Part shown: one piece after another, positions 9,925 through 19,712 of the stretch
Position numbering within the stretch: the stretch's first letter is position 1
How the letters are laid out: each line of letters opens with the position of its first letter
From: a virus
Lineage: Duplodnaviria; Heunggongvirae; Uroviricota; Caudoviricetes
DNA: 36,151 nucleotides
Virus record (IMG/VR): IMGVR_UViG_2585427765_000017
Strand: one strand, 5' to 3'
Made by a program: the position numbers and the translations under genes
Notes under the pieces: model-generated
The model's input: the letters and a program-made list of their open reading frames with translations, nothing else
Databases searched by the model: none
Told to the model about the DNA's origin: nothing

Positions 9925-10038
9925 TCCAAATCTGAATAATTAAATCCAGCACTGTAAATAAAATTTAATCCTTAACCGGAGGGATTTCTGCCCCCTCAGA
10001 ACATCAGGAGGCCGCCCGAAAGGGCGGTGGAGATAATA

Positions 10039-10545
10039 ATGGAAATAACTAAAGAACGATTATTGGAAATAGCAAATCTTAGTGAAAGGGCATTAAGTGA
10101 TGGGAGGATTATTTCTCCTGATGCTTATGAATCAGTTACAAGTATAGAAATAATAACGATGGCCAGGATGCTTCTTGCCCGCTTCAAAAAAGAATATAAA
10201 AAACAGGTAGATAGCAATGCTAATATATATGATATTTTGGACTGTTGGGGAGCTTGGGCTGTAGCTGGAAATAGTTCTATCAACTGGCAGCAAGTGGCTG
10301 ATAAATATAAAGATGTTGTGCCTCATGGTAAAAAATTGCGTCGCCAGAGCAGCGATGATGAAGGGCGAGTGATTGATGAGTGGATATTGAGACTCAGACA
10401 ATATAAAATAGATGAATATGAGTTAATTGTTGCCCACTTTGTAATAGGCGTTTCTTTGAGAAAGATCGCAAAAAGAAAGAAATGTGCGGATGGGACTATT
10501 AGAAAAAAATACAAGCAGCGATGGGAGTATTGGAGGGAGTATTAA
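10039..10545 (+). CDS. Q-like antiterminator homologue (QuuD/PF06530-like), AT-rich, second Q-type gene in the window
   Basis: Motifs ILDCWGAWAVAGNSSINWQ, DDEGRVIDEWILRL, YELIVAHFVIGVSLRKIAKRKKCADGTIRK resemble (from memory) the ERWGAWA...DDD...YVVG... pattern of QuuD-type Q proteins. ATG at 10039 with GGAGA RBS; visibly AT-rich compared with flanks. Confidence 0.5.
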   Translation: MEITKERLLEIANLSERALSDGRIISPDAYESVTSIEIITMARMLLARFKKEYKKQVDSNANIYDILDCWGAWAVAGNSSINWQQVADKYKDVVPHGKKLRRQSSDDEGRVIDEWILRLRQYKIDEYELIVAHFVIGVSLRKIAKRKKCADGTIRKKYKQRWEYWREY

Positions 10546-10566
10546 TGCTCTAACTGTTAGAGCTAA
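10546..10566. terminator. Hairpin between convergent genes (possible bidirectional terminator)
   Basis: Perfect inverted repeat GCTCTAAC-tg-TTAGAGC sits between the stop of the Q-like gene and the stop of the minus-strand membrane-protein gene. Confidence 0.35.
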
Positions 10567-11783
10567 ATAAAAATCTTCGCAAGAAATATTCCTGCTGCAA
10601 TAGAACTTGGTAGCCAAGCCAAATACATAAATAACTTTATTGTATTATCACATTTGGTTTGGCTCTTTGATAGTTCATATAGAGCCTCATTAATGTCCTT
10701 CTTAAGGTCTTCTGGATAATTTTCATTGTTTTTTAGAAAAGGCATAAATGCTATATCTTTAGCATGGTAAATATGTTTTAATTGTTTATCCTGATTGAGT
10801 AATACCATATATAAAATAAGTGAGCTTAACAATACACCTAATAAAACGAGTAACATTTCAGATCTTGATGTTAGTTTTATAATCCCGAAGGATGCCAGTA
10901 AAGACACAGGGATTGATAATACTTTTGTCGTCAAATCAGTAATAAGTTTTGAGATTTTTTCAGCAAACTCTGCTTCAGACTTCGCAATTTCTTTTCGTGC
11001 CTTATGGAATGAAAAACCACTCATATACGTGGATAAATTATTTTCAAATAGCTTTACAAATTTATCCCAATGGCAAATTAGGTTTTCAAAATCATATTTG
11101 TTATCGAGAATAAACTCCACTATGGTATTCCTGAAAATACCTGTTTTTTCTGCTTGATGGGGGATTTGGGCGTTTTTTACATCTAAAAGACTCTTGATGA
11201 TAGCATCATCAATGTCATTTATATTGAGCATCTTAGGTGTAATGCACGTTTCTAAAATAATAGATGTTGATTTTGCGTCAGAATCTTTCACGAAAACTAA
11301 ACGATAATTTGAAGATTCCGATTTTGTATCGTGAAAGTGCGCAATCTCAGCCAGGGAAGAAATAATTGCACAAATTTTCTCGATTTTTATAATTTCGTCC
11401 GGTTTACTTGAATCAGACGGATGAAAATCCTCATCGATTATGTAATACTCTTTAGGAATTACACCTTTCTTGAGTGAGTTTATACAAAGGAACTCTTGAA
11501 TTGAGTTATAGAAACGTTCTGCTCCATTTTTAGGGGATATGTAAGTGTATGAGAATTTATCTCCAATTTTAATTGGGTGTGATTTTAAATCGTCTTCGTC
11601 AATGAACTCATTATTAATATCAACATCTTCAAAATAACCGTAGGCTTTATGTGAATTTACTAACAAGTTTACCAAACGTTGATTGTTATTATTTATTTCA
11701 ACAGTTGCAGAAAAAGAACGTCCGTCGAATTGGGGCTTCGATGATGCTCTATAAAAATCTACAACCGTTGATAAATTAGCCAT
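10563..11783 (-). CDS. Protein with about 280-aa soluble N-terminal region and three predicted C-terminal transmembrane helices; second gene of AT-rich operon
   Basis: Hydrophobic segments VLSIPVSLLASFGIIKL, MLLVLLGVLLSSLILYMVLL and IKLFMYLAWLPSSIAAGIFLAKIFI near the C-terminus. ATG (MANLSTVV) overlaps the upstream gene stop as ATGGCTAA; the track GTG start at 11795 is less likely. K/N/I/D-rich composition. Confidence 0.7.
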   Translation of the reverse strand: MANLSTVVDFYRASSKPQFDGRSFSATVEINNNNQRLVNLLVNSHKAYGYFEDVDINNEFIDEDDLKSHPIKIGDKFSYTYISPKNGAERFYNSIQEFLCINSLKKGVIPKEYYIIDEDFHPSDSSKPDEIIKIEKICAIISSLAEIAHFHDTKSESSNYRLVFVKDSDAKSTSIILETCITPKMLNINDIDDAIIKSLLDVKNAQIPHQAEKTGIFRNTIVEFILDNKYDFENLICHWDKFVKLFENNLSTYMSGFSFHKARKEIAKSEAEFAEKISKLITDLTTKVLSIPVSLLASFGIIKLTSRSEMLLVLLGVLLSSLILYMVLLNQDKQLKHIYHAKDIAFMPFLKNNENYPEDLKKDINEALYELSKSQTKCDNTIKLFMYLAWLPSSIAAGIFLAKIFI

Positions 11784-12918
11784 TTTCTTTTCCACTATCC
11801 CTTATTTTTAAATTTTCTTTTACCACAGCGCTTAGTTTAGCCTTAAATTCAGCTGGTAAGTTTGTAAATGATAATCTTCCAGTTGTTTCATCGTACCACA
11901 CATCATCATCAGCTGTCACTCCAAGGAGAGACTTGTCAAAATTAAATCCAATCTCATCAGTCTTAAAGGTGATGTTTTTAATGTCTTTCAACGCCCGTTT
12001 ACTGATAACAAATTCAGTTGGAATTCTCACATTTTCACTATTTAAAAAAAGAATTAATTCGTGAGTGTAAGATTCTTTGGTAGACTCATCTAAATTTGTC
12101 ATGTGACGTGCTGCAATTACTTCAATATCACTCAATCGGGCTGACAAATTTTTAGCTGCTTGTGTGTCTAAATATGCAATAACGTCATGTTTAAATCTAT
12201 TGGCACATGCTTTAAGTTCTGGTTTTTGGTTAAAAAATTGTTTTGCGACAGTTGGTAGTTTTTTTGTGGCTTTTGCTGCTGCAAGTGATTTGTCGCATCC
12301 TATTGCTGCAATAAAATATGCTGATGTGGATTGACCCACTCCTTTACTTACGAAACTTAGATAACTTAAGTCAATTTTTTCAGACTCATCAGCAGTTTTA
12401 TATTGTTGGTAGAGATTGAAATTTATTCTTGCTGCTTGGTGTATTTTGGATAGATCCAAATGGATCATTTCTTCAGGTTCGAGTTTGTTGCTGATAGTAA
12501 CACCATTTTTCTTTTTAATCATTGCAATTAAAAAGAATTTATTGTTATTTACAATATAGTCACAAAACACAATAAAACCACCAGATGACCAAGGTTCTTC
12601 TTTGGCTTTTTTTACAAGTTGCTTCATCACTTCAATAGAAAAAGGCACAAACTTTTCATTAATGTTATCCTCTGACTGAGAATACTCTTCAAATATTGAT
12701 GGCACAGGCCCTTGTTCTGTTTTTTCCTCTTTAAAAACGCCATAATGTGCAGAATTGCCTTTGGTTCCATATAAAGATGAAATGTCTTGAATAAGTTTTA
12801 TAACAATTGGATTGGTTTTATCGAGAGGAGTGGATCTAAGCTGATACGGCTTAGAAAAATCAAAATCCTTTTTTGCTTCTTTAATTAGTTCATGAACGAT
12901 AACTTGCTTAATTTCCAT
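11776..12918 (-). CDS. NdpA/YejK-like (NA37 nucleoid-associated protein family) homologue; first gene of AT-rich operon
   Basis: VIVHELIKEAK near the N-terminus, GGFIVFCDY and YLSFVSKGVGQSTSAYFIAAIG motifs parallel YejK IALHQLIK, GGFVLFCHY, YLTFLKGRVGRKVADFF as I recall them; AGGTGA RBS 8 nt upstream of ATG. Needs HMM confirmation. Confidence 0.65.
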   Translation of the reverse strand: MEIKQVIVHELIKEAKKDFDFSKPYQLRSTPLDKTNPIVIKLIQDISSLYGTKGNSAHYGVFKEEKTEQGPVPSIFEEYSQSEDNINEKFVPFSIEVMKQLVKKAKEEPWSSGGFIVFCDYIVNNNKFFLIAMIKKKNGVTISNKLEPEEMIHLDLSKIHQAARINFNLYQQYKTADESEKIDLSYLSFVSKGVGQSTSAYFIAAIGCDKSLAAAKATKKLPTVAKQFFNQKPELKACANRFKHDVIAYLDTQAAKNLSARLSDIEVIAARHMTNLDESTKESYTHELILFLNSENVRIPTEFVISKRALKDIKNITFKTDEIGFNFDKSLLGVTADDDVWYDETTGRLSFTNLPAEFKAKLSAVVKENLKIRDSGKENG

Positions 12919-14912: not shown

Positions 14913-15278
14913 ATGACTGAACGCATAGAATTTGTTTTGCCTTACCCGCCAACGGTGAACACTTACTGGCGACGTCGTGGCAGCACATATTTTGTATCAA
15001 AAGCCGGTGAGCGTTATCGCCGTGATGTGGCGCTTATTGTTCGCCAGCAGCGGCTGAAATTAAACCTGTCCGGAAGGCTGGCGATAAAGATTATTGCAGA
15101 GCCACCGGATAAACGTCGTCGTGACCTGGACAATATCCTGAAAGCACCACTGGATGCGCTGACGCATGCCGGACTTCTCATAGACGACGAGCAGTTTGAT
15201 GAAATTAATATTGTGCGCGGTCAGCTCGTTCCTGGGGGGCGGCTGGGCGTGAAGATTTACAAAATTGAGAGTGAGTGA
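14913..15278 (+). CDS. rusA: Holliday junction resolvase RusA
   Basis: LPYPPTVNTYWRRRG...RRRDLDNILKAPLDALTHAGLLIDDEQ parallels the RusA PWPPSNNRYY...RRRDLDN...DAL pattern; 121 aa. Confidence 0.85.
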   Translation: MTERIEFVLPYPPTVNTYWRRRGSTYFVSKAGERYRRDVALIVRQQRLKLNLSGRLAIKIIAEPPDKRRRDLDNILKAPLDALTHAGLLIDDEQFDEINIVRGQLVPGGRLGVKIYKIESE

Positions 15279-15829
15279 TCGTAAATATGATATATCCGGA
15301 AATTACAGGCAAAAGCGGCGAGCATTTACGTCTAAAAACGCTGGAAGCCGTCTGGATCCAGGGGAAATTACGGATGTGGGGGCGTTGGTCGTATATAGGT
15401 GGTGGCAAACCAGGAAATATGTTCAATCAGTTGCTGGCATCCAAAAAACTGACAAAAACCGCGGTCAATGAAGCCCTGCGTAGAATCAGGGAGTCAGGGA
15501 TTGATAAACCAGAGCTGGAAGCATTCTTGCGAGAGATGATCGCTGGCAGACAGAAGAGCTGGTTGTCTCACTGTACTGATGCAGAGGCGTTACGCATTGA
15601 TGGGGTGATAAGTAAAGCGCTTGCACGTTATCCTGGATTGATTGATATCCTGCGGCAAAGGTACGAAGGGCGGGGGATGAGTAAACGCAAAATGGCTGAA
15701 TTGTTGAATGAGGTTCACCCTGAGTGGTGCTATGCAACATGCCGCAATCGTATAGATATGTGGCTGAGAATAGCTGAGTTTATTCTGTATCCACTGATGC
15801 GAGATGCATTTTCTTTTACTGACGCTTAG
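15275..15829 (+). CDS. Late antiterminator Q candidate (canonical position)
   Basis: About 180-aa ORF directly after rusA and directly upstream of a short non-coding stretch ending in a strong intrinsic terminator (tR'-like), the standard Q-PR'-tR' arrangement. Sequence family not confirmed. Confidence 0.5.
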   Translation: MIVNMIYPEITGKSGEHLRLKTLEAVWIQGKLRMWGRWSYIGGGKPGNMFNQLLASKKLTKTAVNEALRRIRESGIDKPELEAFLREMIAGRQKSWLSHCTDAEALRIDGVISKALARYPGLIDILRQRYEGRGMSKRKMAELLNEVHPEWCYATCRNRIDMWLRIAEFILYPLMRDAFSFTDA

Positions 15830-15996
15830 AATCTGGAGGGCGTTTGTTGTTGCACGAAGAGGATTTTTGGCTGGTAGTAAGGTTTGTGCAGTTTTAGAAA
15901 AAAAGCTTGTATTTTTAGCCATAAACTGTTTCAATCCAGCTACGCTTCGCAAAGCTGTACCGCGAGGCGAATAGCAGACATGGACACCTGAAAGAA

Positions 15997-16019
15997 CCCG
16001 CTTTATGCGGGTTTTTTTA
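15997..16019 (+). terminator. Intrinsic terminator (tR'-like) downstream of Q
   Basis: CCCGC-tttat-GCGGG followed by TTTTTTT at about 15997-16019. Confidence 0.6.
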
Positions 16020-16141
16020 TGCCTGAAAAACGGCACAGAACATTAAACGCGCTGGTAGTTGTGAATACTGGTCTTTCAGCTTGCTGGCTTTTTCGACAAG
16101 AGGTATTGGTATGTCACGTTAACCAGAAAAGGGAAAAAGGC

Positions 16142-16339
16142 ATGCTAAAACAGCAGGATATGACCGAAACCGCCAGAGTGGTGTTTAATGAATTAAGCGT
16201 CACCGAACCGGCGACCGTCGGGGAAATTGCGCAGAATACTTACCTTTCACGCGAACGCTGCCAGTTAATACTGACTCAGCTTGTTATGGCGGGTCTGGCA
16301 GATTATCAGTTCGGTTGTTACAGACGCCTTCCGCAGTGA
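16142..16339 (+). CDS. Small hypothetical protein (65 aa), possibly winged-helix DNA-binding
   Basis: Internal Met of track ORF 16019..16339; MLKQQDMTETARVVFNELSVTEPATVGEIAQNTYLSRERCQLILTQLVMAGL; sits between tR' and the methyltransferase. Confidence 0.35.
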   Translation: MLKQQDMTETARVVFNELSVTEPATVGEIAQNTYLSRERCQLILTQLVMAGLADYQFGCYRRLPQ

Positions 16340-16489
16340 AGGCTTTTTAATTTGTGGTAATGGGCGGCTGGTGGGTGTTAGCGGCACCTGCCAGCCATCT
16401 GCTCATGCGTTGGGGTCACAAGCAAACCTCAGGCCCATCTGCTTTGCGCAAAAGCGGTATGAGCCTATCAGAGAAGTGCTTATTGATCT

Positions 16490-17539
16490 ATGATTAATAC
16501 TGTAAAAATATCCAGTTGTGAGTTAATCAACGCTGATTGCCTGGAGTTTATCCAGACCTTACCGGAAAACTCTGTCGATCTGATAGTCACAGACCCGCCA
16601 TATTTTAAAGTGAAGCCCGAGGGCTGGGATAACCAGTGGGAGGGCGACGATGATTACCTGAAATGGCTGGACCAGTGTCTGGCGCAGTTCTGGCGGGTAC
16701 TGAAGCCTGCCGGAAGTCTTTACCTGTTCTGTGGTCATCGCCTGGCATCTGACACCGAAATCATGATGCGTGAGCGCTTTAATGTGCTGAACCACATTAT
16801 CTGGGCGAAGCCGTCCGGACGCTGGAACGGGTGCAATAAGGAAAGTCTGCGGGCGTATTTTCCGGCAACAGAGCGCATTCTGTTTGCAGAACATTATCAG
16901 GGACCGTATCGCCCGAAAGATGATGGCTATGTGGAGCAGGGGCGCGAGCTAAAACAGCACGTCATGGCCCCGCTGATTTCTTACTTTCGTGATGCGCGTA
17001 AATCACTGGGAATAACGTCAAAACAGATAGCGGAAGCCACCGGAAAGAAAAACATGGCTTCGCACTGGTTTGGTGCCAGTCAGTGGCAGTTACCGAACGA
17101 GGGTGATTACAATAAATTGCAGGCGTTGTTTGCGCGTGTTGCGGCAGAAAAACATCAGCGCGGGGAACTGGAAAAGCCACACCACCAGCTGGTCAGCACA
17201 TACAGTGAGCTGAACCGGCAGTATACGGAACTGCTGAGTGAATATAAAAATTTGCGGCGGTATTTCGGTGTGACGGCGCAGGTTCCGTACACCGATGTCT
17301 GGACGCATAAACCGGTGCAGTACTATCCAGGGAAACATCCGTGCGAAAAACCGGCAGAAATGCTGCAGCAGATAATCAACGCGAGCAGTCGTCCGGGAGA
17401 CCTGGTTGCAGATTTTTTTATGGGTTCAGGTTCAACGGTAAAAGCGGCGATGGCACTGGGGCGTTGTGCGATTGGTGTTGAGCTGGAGACCGGACGTTTT
17501 GAACAGACAGTCAGGGAAGTTCAGGATTTAATCGTTTGA
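16490..17539 (+). CDS. DNA methyltransferase (N6-adenine/N4-cytosine class, DPPY motif), apparently orphan
   Basis: Motif IV DPPY near the N-terminus (LIVTDPPYF) and motif I FxGxG near the C-terminus (DFFMGSGST). No restriction endonuclease gene identifiable adjacent. Confidence 0.85.
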   Translation: MINTVKISSCELINADCLEFIQTLPENSVDLIVTDPPYFKVKPEGWDNQWEGDDDYLKWLDQCLAQFWRVLKPAGSLYLFCGHRLASDTEIMMRERFNVLNHIIWAKPSGRWNGCNKESLRAYFPATERILFAEHYQGPYRPKDDGYVEQGRELKQHVMAPLISYFRDARKSLGITSKQIAEATGKKNMASHWFGASQWQLPNEGDYNKLQALFARVAAEKHQRGELEKPHHQLVSTYSELNRQYTELLSEYKNLRRYFGVTAQVPYTDVWTHKPVQYYPGKHPCEKPAEMLQQIINASSRPGDLVADFFMGSGSTVKAAMALGRCAIGVELETGRFEQTVREVQDLIV

Positions 17540-17588
17540 AACGGATGAGATTGCAGAATTAATTACGCACCATTATTATTCTGCTCCC

Positions 17589-17664
17589 GGCCCTTTAGCT
17601 CAGTGGTGAGAGCGAGCGACTCATAATCGCCAGGTCGCTGGTTCAAATCCAGCAAGGGCCACCA
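17589..17664 (+). tRNA. ileZ: tRNA-Ile (anticodon CAU, lysidine type; ileX/ileZ-like)
   Basis: GGCCCTTTAGCTCAGTGG...ACTCATAATCG...GGTTCAAATCCAGCAAGGGCCACCA: acceptor GGCCCTT/AAGGGCC, anticodon loop CUCAUAA, encoded CCA; close to E. coli ileX as recalled. Confidence 0.8.
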
Positions 17665-17671
17665 TCACATA

Positions 17672-17748
17672 CCGCCATTAGCTCATCAGGATAGAGCGCC
17701 AGCCTTCGAAGCTGGTTGCGCGGGGTTCGAGTCCTCGATGGCGGTCCA
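17672..17748 (+). tRNA. argN: tRNA-Arg (anticodon UCG)
   Basis: Cloverleaf folded by hand: acceptor CCGCCAT/ATGGCGG, anticodon stem CCAGC/GCTGG with loop CTTCGAA, T-loop TTCGAGT, encoded CCA. C1-G72 start is unusual. Confidence 0.7.
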
Positions 17749-17761
17749 TTATCTGTACCCT

Positions 17762-17838
17762 GCGTTGTTAGCTCAGCCGGACAGAGCAATTGCCTTCTAA
17801 GCAATCGGTCACTGGTTCGAATCCAGTACAACGCGCCA
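17762..17838 (+). tRNA. argO: tRNA-Arg (anticodon UCU)
   Basis: Acceptor GCGTTGT/ACAACGC, anticodon stem ATTGC/GCAAT with loop CTTCTAA, T-loop TTCGAAT, encoded CCA. Confidence 0.8.
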
Positions 17839-17852
17839 CGCTTATTTTTCCA

Positions 17853-17882
17853 GGCTCGCTTCGGCGGGCCTTTTTCATATCC
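17853..17882 (+). terminator. Hairpin plus T-run directly after the tRNA cluster
   Basis: GGCTCGC-ttcg-GCGGGCC followed by TTTTT at about 17853-17882. Confidence 0.4.
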
Positions 17883-18013
17883 GCGCCACGCCCGGCGCAC
17901 ATCAAAAAACCACAGAGCCTTTCAGGGGTGAGCTTACGGGATGGTCAGTGTGACTTTCTCTGTGGGCTGGTCACCCCCGGGCGCAGGCTCACCCACTAAA
18001 AGGAAAAGTCACG

Positions 18014-18439
18014 ATGTTTGGTATTTTCAAAAAGAAAACCCGCAAGGCCATTACCGAGGTGAAGAAGATGGAGAACCGTGACGCAGTGGAGGCGACCGTC
18101 TGGGGCGCGTACTCCATTGCATACGCTGACGGCACCTGTGACGCGAAAGAAATCGCGGTACTGGAAAAAACCATTGCAGCACTTCCTGTCTTTGCGCCGT
18201 TCTCCGGTGAGATTGCACAAATGAGTGCAAATATCCGCGCCCGTTATGAAGCGTCGCCGCGTTCTGCCAATGCCGAAGCTCTTCGTCAGCTGGCTGATGT
18301 TGCCGGTACTGATGATGCAGTTAATGTGCTGTGCCTGTGTCTGGATATCGCTGACCAGGACGGTATCGGTCAGGAAGAAGAAGCGCAACTGAAGAAAATT
18401 GCGCAGGCGCTGCAGTTGCCGCTGGAGCAGTACCTGTGA
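18014..18439 (+). CDS. TerB-domain-like protein (moron at the position occupied by stx in Stx phages)
   Basis: Two ADG/ADQDG...E...L repeats (IAYADGTCDAKEIAVLEKTI and LDIADQDGIGQEEEAQLKKIAQALQL) characteristic of TerB-like domains; RBS AAGGAAAAG before ATG. Confidence 0.55.
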   Translation: MFGIFKKKTRKAITEVKKMENRDAVEATVWGAYSIAYADGTCDAKEIAVLEKTIAALPVFAPFSGEIAQMSANIRARYEASPRSANAEALRQLADVAGTDDAVNVLCLCLDIADQDGIGQEEEAQLKKIAQALQLPLEQYL

Positions 18440-18588
18440 AAAGTGCGCGCCTTGTGCTGGCTGTCATCCTGTTGTTTCTGGTAGTGGTGGTTGATTTCAC
18501 CGGACGACTGATGTCGGTGCTGGCAGATGGTGTGCTGGTGGCGATGGCGCTGGTCGTGCTCCGGCCTTTACTGCGTAAATCTGAATAA
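18436..18588 (+). CDS. Small hydrophobic protein (50 aa, GTG start overlapping the TerB-like stop; below track threshold)
   Basis: Hand translation VKSARLVLAVILLFLVVVVDFTGRLMSVLADGVLVAMALVVLRPLLRKSE; two hydrophobic segments; start overlaps the upstream stop (GTGA). Confidence 0.3.
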   Translation: MKSARLVLAVILLFLVVVVDFTGRLMSVLADGVLVAMALVVLRPLLRKSE

Positions 18589-18674
18589 CATCACACAAAA
18601 GGCATCTGCGGATGCCTTTGACGGGGTGTTTTTTACGGGTCGCTGGTGGCCCTTTTTTATTTTCAGGAGGAAGT

Positions 18675-19067
18675 ATGTCTGAACCCTTATCCGGTTCCGG
18701 CACGGCTGCGGCGCTGGGTGGCGCGACGGTATTCGGGCTGTTTACCGGGATGGATTTCGGGATTGTGTTTGGCGCGTTCGCCGGGGCGTTATTTGTGGCA
18801 ACGATGCCGCAGTCACTTTCAGTCTGGCGCGTGGTGGCACATTTTCTGGTGTCGTTTATTGTCGGCGTGCTGGGAGCGCGTGTGCTGTCAGCCTGGATTG
18901 CATCAAAAACAGGGTATGACGGTACATCAGCAGATGCGCTTTGCGCGGTGCTGGTCTCGGTGGTGTCGGTGAAGATTCTCTCGTTCATCCACCAGCAGGA
19001 TATTGCATCGCTGGTGTCCGGTGTGTTCTCCCGCCTGCGGGGTGGAGGAGGCGGCAATGTTAAGTAA
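18675..19067 (+). CDS. Holin candidate (multi-TM; internal Met of track ORF 18612..19067)
   Basis: MSEPLSGSG... with three hydrophobic segments and a Gly-rich charged C-terminus; AGGAGGAAGT RBS; immediately upstream of endolysin. Confidence 0.55.
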   Translation: MSEPLSGSGTAAALGGATVFGLFTGMDFGIVFGAFAGALFVATMPQSLSVWRVVAHFLVSFIVGVLGARVLSAWIASKTGYDGTSADALCAVLVSVVSVKILSFIHQQDIASLVSGVFSRLRGGGGGNVK

Positions 19068-19332
19068 CCTTCCCGAATTGCTGAATGTGGCGTTATGCAT
19101 GGTTATCGTGCTGACGCTCTTTTTTTATCGTCGCCGTGATTCCAGACATAAACCGCTGGTGTCATGGCTGGCCTGGCTGCTGATGCTGCTGTATGCCTTT
19201 GCGCCCCTCAGCTATCTGTGTGGTCGCCCGTTAGCAACGGGCTGGCTGGAAGTGTTTTTTAATCTGCTGTTCTGCGTGCTGGTGATACGCGCACGCGGGA
19301 ACGTCACAAAAATCTTTCCATTGTTGAGGTGA
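19057..19332 (+). CDS. Second small membrane protein of the lysis cassette (holin/antiholin-like)
   Basis: MLSNLPELLNVALCMVIVLTLFFYRRRD...WLAWLLMLLYAFAPL...; GGAGG RBS; overlaps holin stop and endolysin start. Confidence 0.45.
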   Translation: MLSNLPELLNVALCMVIVLTLFFYRRRDSRHKPLVSWLAWLLMLLYAFAPLSYLCGRPLATGWLEVFFNLLFCVLVIRARGNVTKIFPLLR

Positions 19333-19334
19333 AT

Positions 19335-19712
19335 ATGCCGGGTAAATTCAGATTCAGCCGTCGCAGTGAAAAAAATCTGGAGGGTGTCAAACCACAGCTG
19401 GTTGCTGTAGTTCGCCGTGCGCTGGAGCTGACGGAGGTTGATTTCGGTATTACGGAAGGCCTGCGCAGTAAGTATCGCCAGAAACAGCTGGTTGCGGAAG
19501 GGAAAAGCCAGACCATGAACAGCCGTCACCTGACCGGTGATGCGGTGGATGTTGTGGCCTACATCGGCAGTCAGGTGTCATGGGAGTGGCCTCTGTACGA
19601 GAAAATCGCACAGGCATTTAAGCAGGCTGCCGCAGAGCTGGGGATCGCTATCGAATGGGGCGGGGACTGGAAAACGCTGAAAGACGGACCTCACTTTCAG
19701 CTGAAGCGATAA
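19335..19712 (+). CDS. Endolysin, peptidase M15 family (L-alanyl-D-glutamate / D-Ala-D-Ala peptidase fold)
   Basis: Zn-binding pattern SRHLTGDAVDV...DGPHF typical of M15 peptidases; ATG at 19335 with GAGGTG RBS preferred over track GTG at 19329. Confidence 0.75.
   Translation: MPGKFRFSRRSEKNLEGVKPQLVAVVRRALELTEVDFGITEGLRSKYRQKQLVAEGKSQTMNSRHLTGDAVDVVAYIGSQVSWEWPLYEKIAQAFKQAAAELGIAIEWGGDWKTLKDGPHFQLKR

Follow-up and report, generated by a model that had tools for sequence, protein, structure and literature searches.

Which genes fill the interval between the late antiterminator and tRNA genes on one side and the lysis genes on the other in a lambdoid prophage that carries no toxin? In lambdoid phages this slot carries Shiga toxin (Stx) genes, and its other occupants, along with the genes that were displaced from it, help to reconstruct the origin of toxin phages. 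We addressed this question for a 36,151-nucleotide stretch of DNA from a member of the Caudoviricetes (IMG/VR record IMGVR_UViG_2585427765_000017; hereafter, the window), in which two overlapping plus-strand open reading frames (ORFs) are found at this place: tciA (18014-18439), which has an ATG start and encodes 141 amino acids, and tciB (18436-18588), which has a GTG start and encodes 50. Both were present as claimed for 17853-18588 in a first-pass annotation made from the letters alone, whose left edge coincides with a terminator-like hairpin (17852-17871), and both are real genes judging from their Pfam and PHROG matches and the numbers of their homologues. That annotation, whose overall interpretation is partly supported by the present analysis, missed that the two ORFs are tciA and tciB, genes named by homology in phage P1 and already annotated in RefSeq, so that they are not new; their identity and position at this locus are almost certain. 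As the best overall explanation, to which we assign a probability of about 0.4, we propose that tciAB is an accessory gene pair located where the late operon controlled by Q carries variable cargo, and that its products would perturb an inner-membrane process of the doomed host.

TciA is a cytoplasmic, all-helical protein and a divergent member of the TerB family. It matches the Pfam TerB profile (PF05099) with E=1.3e-7 and 32.4 bits, against a gathering cut-off of 24.4, in an alignment limited to residues 11-57 (47 residues) and profile positions 60-106 of 118, and it is matched over its full length by phrog_632, annotated as 'tellurite resistance' (E=2.8e-64). The databases hold 233 homologues of TciA, and an exhaustive phmmer search returned 167 cluster representatives. 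In an extended alignment of 61 full-length relatives that are 22-68% identical to TciA (alignment A4), every member matches PF05099 and 18 also match DUF533. The profile built from this alignment finds the solved structure of TerB, 2JXU, with E=3.8e-27 and virtually end to end (positions 5-144 against 10-150); it also matches 2OU3 and 2H5N, more weakly. A search of the Protein Data Bank (PDB) with the single TciA sequence gave chance matches only, and NCBIfam has no model for either TciA or TciB. The AlphaFold2 model of TciA (mean predicted local distance difference test score 87.4, predicted template modelling score 0.83) consists of a disordered basic N-terminus followed by six helices, and a Foldseek search with this model ranked 2H5N at the top. 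Thus, the profile search passed the PF05099 threshold and the predicted structure is all-helical and TerB-like, as the first-pass annotation had anticipated in calling the protein TerB-like, and TciA is a genuine, if distant, relative of canonical TerB.

Two acidic loops with the DG...E motif are found in TciA, ADGTCDAKE (residues 38-46) and DQDGIGQEE (residues 114-122). For G40, E46, G117 and E122, conservation does not fall below 90% even in those relatives of TciA that are only 22-40% identical to it. Among close relatives, 40 columns are invariant, including both motifs and three cysteines, C42, C107 and C109. TerB of the ter cluster (2JXU) shares with TciA the PF05099 domain, the all-helical fold, the two DG...E motifs and a similar size (151-153 amino acids vs 141) but lacks the three cysteines in its aligned sequence. 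Its partner is the integral membrane protein TerC, whereas the partner gene here encodes the 50-residue DUF3927 protein TciB, and TerC, TerD, TerE and TerZ are all missing from the tciAB locus.

TciB was described in the first-pass annotation as a 50-residue membrane ORF with two helices that overlaps the stop codon of the TerB-like gene, and this description holds. This inner-membrane protein matches Pfam DUF3927 (PF13064, E=1.4e-14) and phrog_1470, 'TciB-like' (E=3.3e-23), and has 166 homologues in the databases. Its hydropathy peaks in two windows, residues 6-20 and 28-42, which are separated by a DFTGR turn, and Lys or Arg residues are found at both ends, so that by the positive-inside rule TciB is a membrane hairpin with both termini inside. 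The GTG start of tciB overlaps the TGA stop of tciA by 4 nucleotides (GTGA) and is preceded, 8 nucleotides upstream, by GGAG. The two genes are translationally coupled and inherited together: tciB lies directly after tciA in nearly all of approximately 100 loci, even where TciA is only 41-43% identical, and intact coupled ORFs are found in Escherichia, Klebsiella, Citrobacter, Enterobacter, Yersinia, Rahnella and Pantoea. In the Enterobacter and Yersinia prophages, a TerB gene followed by a DUF3927 gene is seen among the Pfam-annotated neighbours.

Two further observations concern the gene pair. A 196-residue protein from a Logan assembly (P0060) contains P1-type TciA and TciB in a single frame and matches both PF05099 and PF13064; it is either a natural fusion or a product of a sequencing error at the overlapping stop and start. 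Separately, a few otherwise near-identical prophages in IMG/VR (L015 and L029) have an intact tciA with a truncated TciB match that covers 16 or 37 of the 50 residues, which suggests that tciB is occasionally disrupted.

The proteins encoded in the window are 85.8% (TciA) and 52% (TciB) identical to those of phage P1. Annotated carriers of tciAB include phages JLK-2012, PPyecE_EH1910 and CharmingMan, several Klebsiella phages and P1-like phage-plasmids, and the genes are also known from prophages of Klebsiella, Citrobacter, Enterobacter and Yersinia. Of 5,426 complete E. coli genomes, 227 show some match to the tciAB pair with its conserved upstream leader, and 165 match it with at least 80% coverage; a single genome has up to six such sites. 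The third gene of the P1 operon, tciC, is absent from the window, where the best tblastn match of P1 TciC (E=0.69, not significant) lies away from tciAB and the gene pair is followed by the holin module. In a CRISPR interference screen of P1, tciA, tciB and tciC all scored as non-essential (PMC10695390); roughly half of the P1 subgroup-1 phage-plasmids do without the tci operon (PMC9603915); and in P1vir infection the tci genes are transcribed and are reported among the genes differentially expressed at 10-20 min (bioRxiv 10.64898/2025.12.28.696737). The P1 operon and the pair described here have in common the gene order, the overlapping stop and start, flanking tRNA genes, location in a lytic-cycle operon, accessory status and a function assigned by homology only. 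They differ in that the P1 genes belong to the C1-controlled early ban operon and lack the conserved lambdoid leader upstream of tciA, whereas the genes in the window belong to a Q-dependent late operon and are located just before the holins.

How does tciAB relate to the toxin genes found at this place in other phages? The closest phage in the collection searched is the Stx2e phage phiP27, and comparison with it defines two shared blocks. The left block (window 16007-17887), which is also shared by Stx2a phages, is approximately 90% identical at the DNA level and comprises a helix-turn-helix ORF, a methylase gene, the tRNA genes and the hairpin that follows them. The right block (window 18494-19706; 90% identity) comprises the 3' part of tciB, the hairpins that precede the holin, the holins and the endolysin. 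The interval that separates the blocks is occupied in phiP27 by stxA2e, stxB2e and ORF L27. In Stx2a phages the stx2A gene starts 92 nucleotides past argO, the last of the tRNA genes. In a four-way alignment, the terminator hairpin and a small GCGCC...GGCGC hairpin after it are still shared and divergence sets in at approximately 17910, which places the left junction, common to Stx2e, Stx2a and tciAB phages, about 70 nucleotides past argO. The junctions with both kinds of Stx phage thus match the arrangement that the first-pass annotation had described when it placed the two ORFs at the position of stx, and the absence of toxin genes that it reported is in agreement with the tblastn search, which found no stxA homologue in the window.

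At positions 18972-19067 of the phiP27 record (NC_003356), which correspond to window positions 18494-18588, we found a relic of tciB that covers approximately codons 19-50 and contains an in-frame TGA and a 1-nucleotide deletion. It lies between stxB2e/L27 and the holin gene, and part of it is overlain by the minus-strand hypothetical ORF annotated in RefSeq (L27). Because phiP27 retains this decayed 3' part of tciB, it was tciA and the 5' portion of tciB that gave way to stx2e in that lineage, where tciAB predates stx2e. The slots that carry stx2e in phiP27 and stx2a in 933W-type phages have the same flanks as the slot described here (Q, methylase, ileZ/argN/argO, cargo, lysis genes) and hold cargo that likewise depends on late transcription. 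The cargoes themselves are unrelated, an AB5 toxin in those phages and a pair of intracellular and membrane proteins here. In JLK-2012 and PPyecE, tciAB precedes a nanS-p esterase gene and occupies the site of stx2 in 933W-type phages. A match to phage SerU-LTIIb that came up in this connection was limited to the pre-holin hairpins, and the LT-IIb genes of that phage lie in another slot, 3' of the endolysin.

A side observation concerns the record PP818812.1 ('Actinobacillus phage vB_Apl-pPE4'), whose host is given as Actinobacillus pleuropneumoniae. It has 91% DNA identity to the E. coli prophage studied here over the leader, tciAB, the holins and the endolysin, the leader being 100% identical, and its attribution to an Actinobacillus host looks doubtful.

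The part of the slot that precedes tciA is itself conserved. This leader (17880-18013, plus strand), of 110-130 nucleotides, is located before tciA in every lambdoid context and is missing from P1 and from the early-operon contexts described below. Its first ~30 nucleotides, with the small GCGCC...GGCGC hairpin, are common to Stx phages; the remainder, from approximately 17910, is specific to phages that bear tciA, and the leader abuts tciA in all 20 phage records that match positions 17903-18016. Over this interval the leader of PPyecE is 100% identical to that of the window, although its TciA is only 42.7% identical, and in Klebsiella, JLK-2012 and Evi phages leader identity is 78-88%. The leader is always preceded by a terminator hairpin, whose sequence varies. 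An ORF of 46 amino acids within the leader (17941-18081) was considered and rejected: in place of its ATG, Klebsiella and CharmingMan-type leaders have ACG or ATA, and because this internal start is not conserved, we regard the leader as non-coding. An Rfam search of positions 17850-18020 returned nothing, even at E<=1.

A structured leader RNA is suggested by the alignment of these sequences. RNAalifold predicts a long nested hairpin, in which 98.3% of the alignment cells are compatible with pairing and most changes keep the pairing. Only one pair covaries, from C-G to U-A in a single lineage, and this falls short of establishing a structure. An alternative pseudoknot, in which the helix CCACAGAG/CTCTGTGG would be interleaved with GGGTGAGC/GCTCACCC, has a second helix that never varies, and RNAalifold prefers the nested hairpin.

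When would tciAB be expressed? The gene pair has hairpins on both sides. Upstream, directly after the third tRNA gene, a scan matched a hairpin followed by a T-run (17852-17876, hairpin 17852-17871; plus strand) with the sequence AGGCTCGC-TTCG-GCGGGCCT. It is retained in phiP27, the Stx2a phage WGPS2 and JLK-2012, and in PPyecE one of its C-G pairs has become U-A, a compensatory change; the equivalent place before tciA is taken by another terminator hairpin in other contexts. In Klebsiella phage 1 LV-2017 this hairpin is probably the phage's own tR', because tciA starts only 220 nucleotides past the Q gene. Downstream, two hairpins that belong to the holin module, at 18598-18619 and at 18637-18652 with a run of six T (region 18598-18658, plus strand), were recognized in the sequence and by the scan, and are also found upstream of the holin in phiP27, pPE4 and SerU-LTIIb. 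A search of the plus strand between 15700 and 20500 found no sigma-70-like promoter, in a scan that was insensitive, having also missed the late promoter pR'. The missing promoter, the upstream hairpin and the lytic character of the genomic contexts together indicate that tciAB is probably made during lytic growth and not in the lysogen; expression confined to lytic growth, through reading by Q-modified RNA polymerase, is a likely arrangement. We infer that tciAB is late cargo comparable to stx2. The first-pass annotation had considered the TerB-like gene a plausible late-expressed moron with a stress or defence function. The classic, lysogen-expressed moron architecture is not supported, and the stress or defence moron appears somewhat disfavoured.

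The contexts in which tciAB occurs were surveyed in 80 loci from IMG/VR, 17 loci from genomes and the reference phages. In 77 of the 80 IMG/VR loci the next recognized gene after tciAB encodes a holin, and the lysis cassettes are of three types; tRNA genes, in several different arrays, are found just upstream in 61 of the 80; and about seven types of Q are represented. Another arrangement is seen in Enterobacter-type prophages (L110-L112), where tciAB belongs to an early operon close to the repressor and is followed by genes for a YdfE-like protein and the integrase, and in Yersinia enterocolitica prophages (L113-L115), where it lies between a CI-type repressor gene and KilA-N/Lambda_Kil genes. 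In P1, tciABC follows a dicF-like region and two tRNA genes within the ban operon, which is under the control of C1 operators. All of these contexts are operons active in lytic development, and in Yersinia, Enterobacter and P1 a neighbourhood of cell-division inhibitors recurs.

What, then, might the two proteins do? We propose that Q-modified RNA polymerase would read through tR' and the hairpin that follows the tRNA genes, so that tciAB would be transcribed in lytic growth only. TciB would tether TciA at the cytoplasmic face of the inner membrane, and the pair would be the two-piece equivalent both of the contact between TerB and TerC and of the single-chain, membrane-anchored TerB proteins. 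The chances that TciA and TciB form such a complex at the membrane appear to us about even. The two acidic DG...E loops of TciA may bind a divalent cation. The complex would then disturb an inner-membrane process, the likeliest targets being septation or envelope-stress signalling, with an arrest of the filamentation type that is seen with terZAB, and through this arrest the cell would remain productive up to the triggering of the holin; such a specific septation or envelope-stress phenotype is doubtful. The gene pair would be dispensable for plaque formation and would not be a determinant of tellurite resistance.

Several published observations bear on this proposal. A complex of TerB with TerC has been reported (PMC11003894, PMC12054061), and TerB is reported to associate with membranes, its domain being fused to transmembrane helices in the Bunzi system (bioRxiv 10.1101/2022.05.11.491447). 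The TerB protein of Bunzi and the YebE/DUF533 family resemble TciA, as proposed here, in placing a TerB-type domain at the inner membrane. They differ in that the anchor and the TerB domain form one chain, whereas tciAB encodes two coupled polypeptides and lacks an effector domain and partner genes. Filamentation is mediated by terZAB, and tellurite resistance is conferred in Yersinia pestis by terCDE and not by terZAB (PMC4633105). It is this division of roles, together with the kil- and dicF-type neighbours of tciAB, that favours a membrane role in host takeover; by the same token, it becomes less likely that the pair gives the lysogen a phenotype under stress or tellurite.

Against this proposal stand a number of points. 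The link between TciA and canonical TerB is remote: the profile of close relatives alone (A3) had no match in the PDB, and a pairwise BLASTP comparison of TciA with 2JXU (Klebsiella TerB) was not significant (E=0.13), so that the link is made by the Pfam match, the intermediate sequences and the fold. The contact between TciA and TciB is suggested by gene coupling only. The filamentation data refer to terZAB jointly and not to TerB alone, and the adjacency of kil-type genes is guilt by association. The literature searched yielded no experiment on the function of TciA or TciB. A weak promoter in the leader would be compatible with a promoter scan that missed pR'. Finally, the near-constant site just before the holins fits a role in lysis equally well.

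Such a role, in which the two-helix TciB together with TciA would modulate the downstream holins in the manner of an antiholin, is a distinctly unlikely alternative. It draws on the position of tciAB directly before the holin in 77 of 80 viral loci, with three unrelated cassettes, and on the size and topology of TciB, which are like those of small holin- or antiholin-type proteins. Yet having three holin families as neighbours argues against a specific protein-protein partner, a 1.9-kb nanS-p esterase gene separates tciAB from S in JLK-2012 and PPyecE, the annotated neighbours in the P1 ban operon include no lysis gene, and the Enterobacter and Yersinia copies are in early operons. We consider it less improbable, though still unlikely, that tciAB is cargo for exclusion or defence, with TciAB at the membrane keeping superinfecting phages or colicins from entering or acting, either in the lysogen, through leaky expression or a promoter of its own, or in the lytic cycle, where it would protect the burst. 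The ter cluster has historically been tied to phage inhibition and colicin resistance, from which the name 'tci' derives; in Klebsiella, phage resistance is due in part to terC (PMC12054061); TerB domains are found in the Bunzi and Shango defence systems, and a role in membrane surveillance has been proposed for these domains (bioRxiv 10.1101/2022.05.11.491447); and the slot is known for cargo that benefits the lysogen, such as stx. However, the PADLOC models match neither TciA nor TciB, even at E<=1, and tciAB has no effector domain of the Bunzi or Shango kind. The guanine-plus-cytosine content around the pair is unremarkable, with no signature of a foreign island, and expression in the lysogen is at odds with the missing promoter, the upstream terminator and contexts that are all repressed or late lytic operons.

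The database names suggest yet another function. Membership in the Pfam TerB family and source labels such as 'tellurite resistance TerB family protein' would make tciA a tellurite-resistance determinant, but these names were given by homology only, the resistance genes of Yersinia pestis are those of terCDE, and we saw no terC, terD or terE at this locus: tciAB is flanked by tRNA, holin and endolysin genes, and the ORFs scanned across the window are those of a phage, none of them a ter gene. On these comparisons, tellurite resistance is unlikely to come from a lone TerB homologue, and for tciA we hold that function to be barely credible. Nearly as improbable is the notion that tciAB is an inert passenger kept between two recombination-prone module boundaries. 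It is true that the pair is accessory and often lost, and that stx2e took its place in phiP27; however, an unselected copy decays, as the phiP27 relic illustrates, whereas tciAB persists as intact coupled ORFs across seven genera, with 40 invariant columns in TciA.

The window as a whole is a phiP27-like E. coli prophage. Over positions 17500-19100, the stretch that was searched, the chromosome of E. coli E203449 is 100% identical, and the two ORFs are labelled there in RefSeq as 'tellurite resistance TerB family protein' and 'DUF3927 family protein'. The left part of the window encodes, in this order, an integrase, an exonuclease, a CII-like regulator, a replication protein, an HNH endonuclease and RusA. 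The backbone recognized by the first-pass annotation (Q, a tR'-like terminator, a methyltransferase and three tRNA genes with the anticodons of ileZ, argN and argO) was recovered in full, all on the plus strand. The Q-like late antiterminator (15275-15829) matches Pfam DUF1133 (E=1.8e-101) and phrog_753 (E=3.5e-78), with a weak match to Phage_antitermQ. Approximately 165 nucleotides past its stop codon, a tR'-like intrinsic terminator (15995-16018; AACCCGC-TTTAT-GCGGGTT followed by seven T) was read from the letters, having been missed by the consensus terminator scan. A small helix-turn-helix ORF separates this terminator from the gene for an N6/N4 DNA methyltransferase (16490-17539; PF01555, E=2.3e-44), which is also present in phiP27 and Stx2a phages. 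The tRNA array (17589-17838), identified by ARAGORN and by Rfam tRNA matches, consists of ileZ (CAT), argN (TCG) and argO (TCT), names that we borrowed from the homologous stretch of the Stx2a phage WGPS2. On the other side of tciAB, the lysis cassette (18675-19712, plus strand) encodes a holin of the Phage_holin_8 family, a holin with three transmembrane segments and an M15 endolysin, as judged from Pfam and PHROG, within the right block shared with phiP27. It is followed by genes for an HNH protein, terminase, portal, protease, capsid and a contractile tail.

Two other features of the backbone were observed. A second gene of the Q family (10027-10545, plus strand; PF06530, E=3.6e-25) precedes the DUF1133 gene by about 5 kb. 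Next to it come two genes in the opposite orientation (10563-11795 and 11776-12918, minus strand) that encode a homologue of the nucleoid-associated protein NA37 and a 410-residue protein, the latter with no match in Pfam or PADLOC; this pair is possibly a moron or a defence insert. Between the DUF1133 gene and the tR'-like terminator, weak, sub-threshold Rfam matches of the isrK/AgrB-like kind cover positions 15915-16020, a region that may give rise to the short pR'-tR' leader RNA belonging to this type of Q.

Since the genes themselves were already annotated, the additions made here are the exact stx junctions, placed with a precision of some tens of bases, the census of contexts, the conserved leader and the remnant of tciB in phiP27. 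Taken jointly, they would permit a bolder and rather improbable picture, in which the leader is a structured RNA that acts in cis in late operons and is new to description, the leader and tciAB are the ancestral occupant of a slot that stx genes later entered by recombination, and TciAB is a TerB module by which the phage interferes with the TerB-based membrane surveillance of its host. If this is true, the leader may act as a 5' stabilizer or as a signal for processing once the tRNAs are excised, or it may be a switch controlling the expression of the cargo. The gene pair is widespread and is routinely labelled 'tellurite resistance', a label that is probably misleading, and the function of so common a phage accessory module might inform the roles of TerB domains at membranes.

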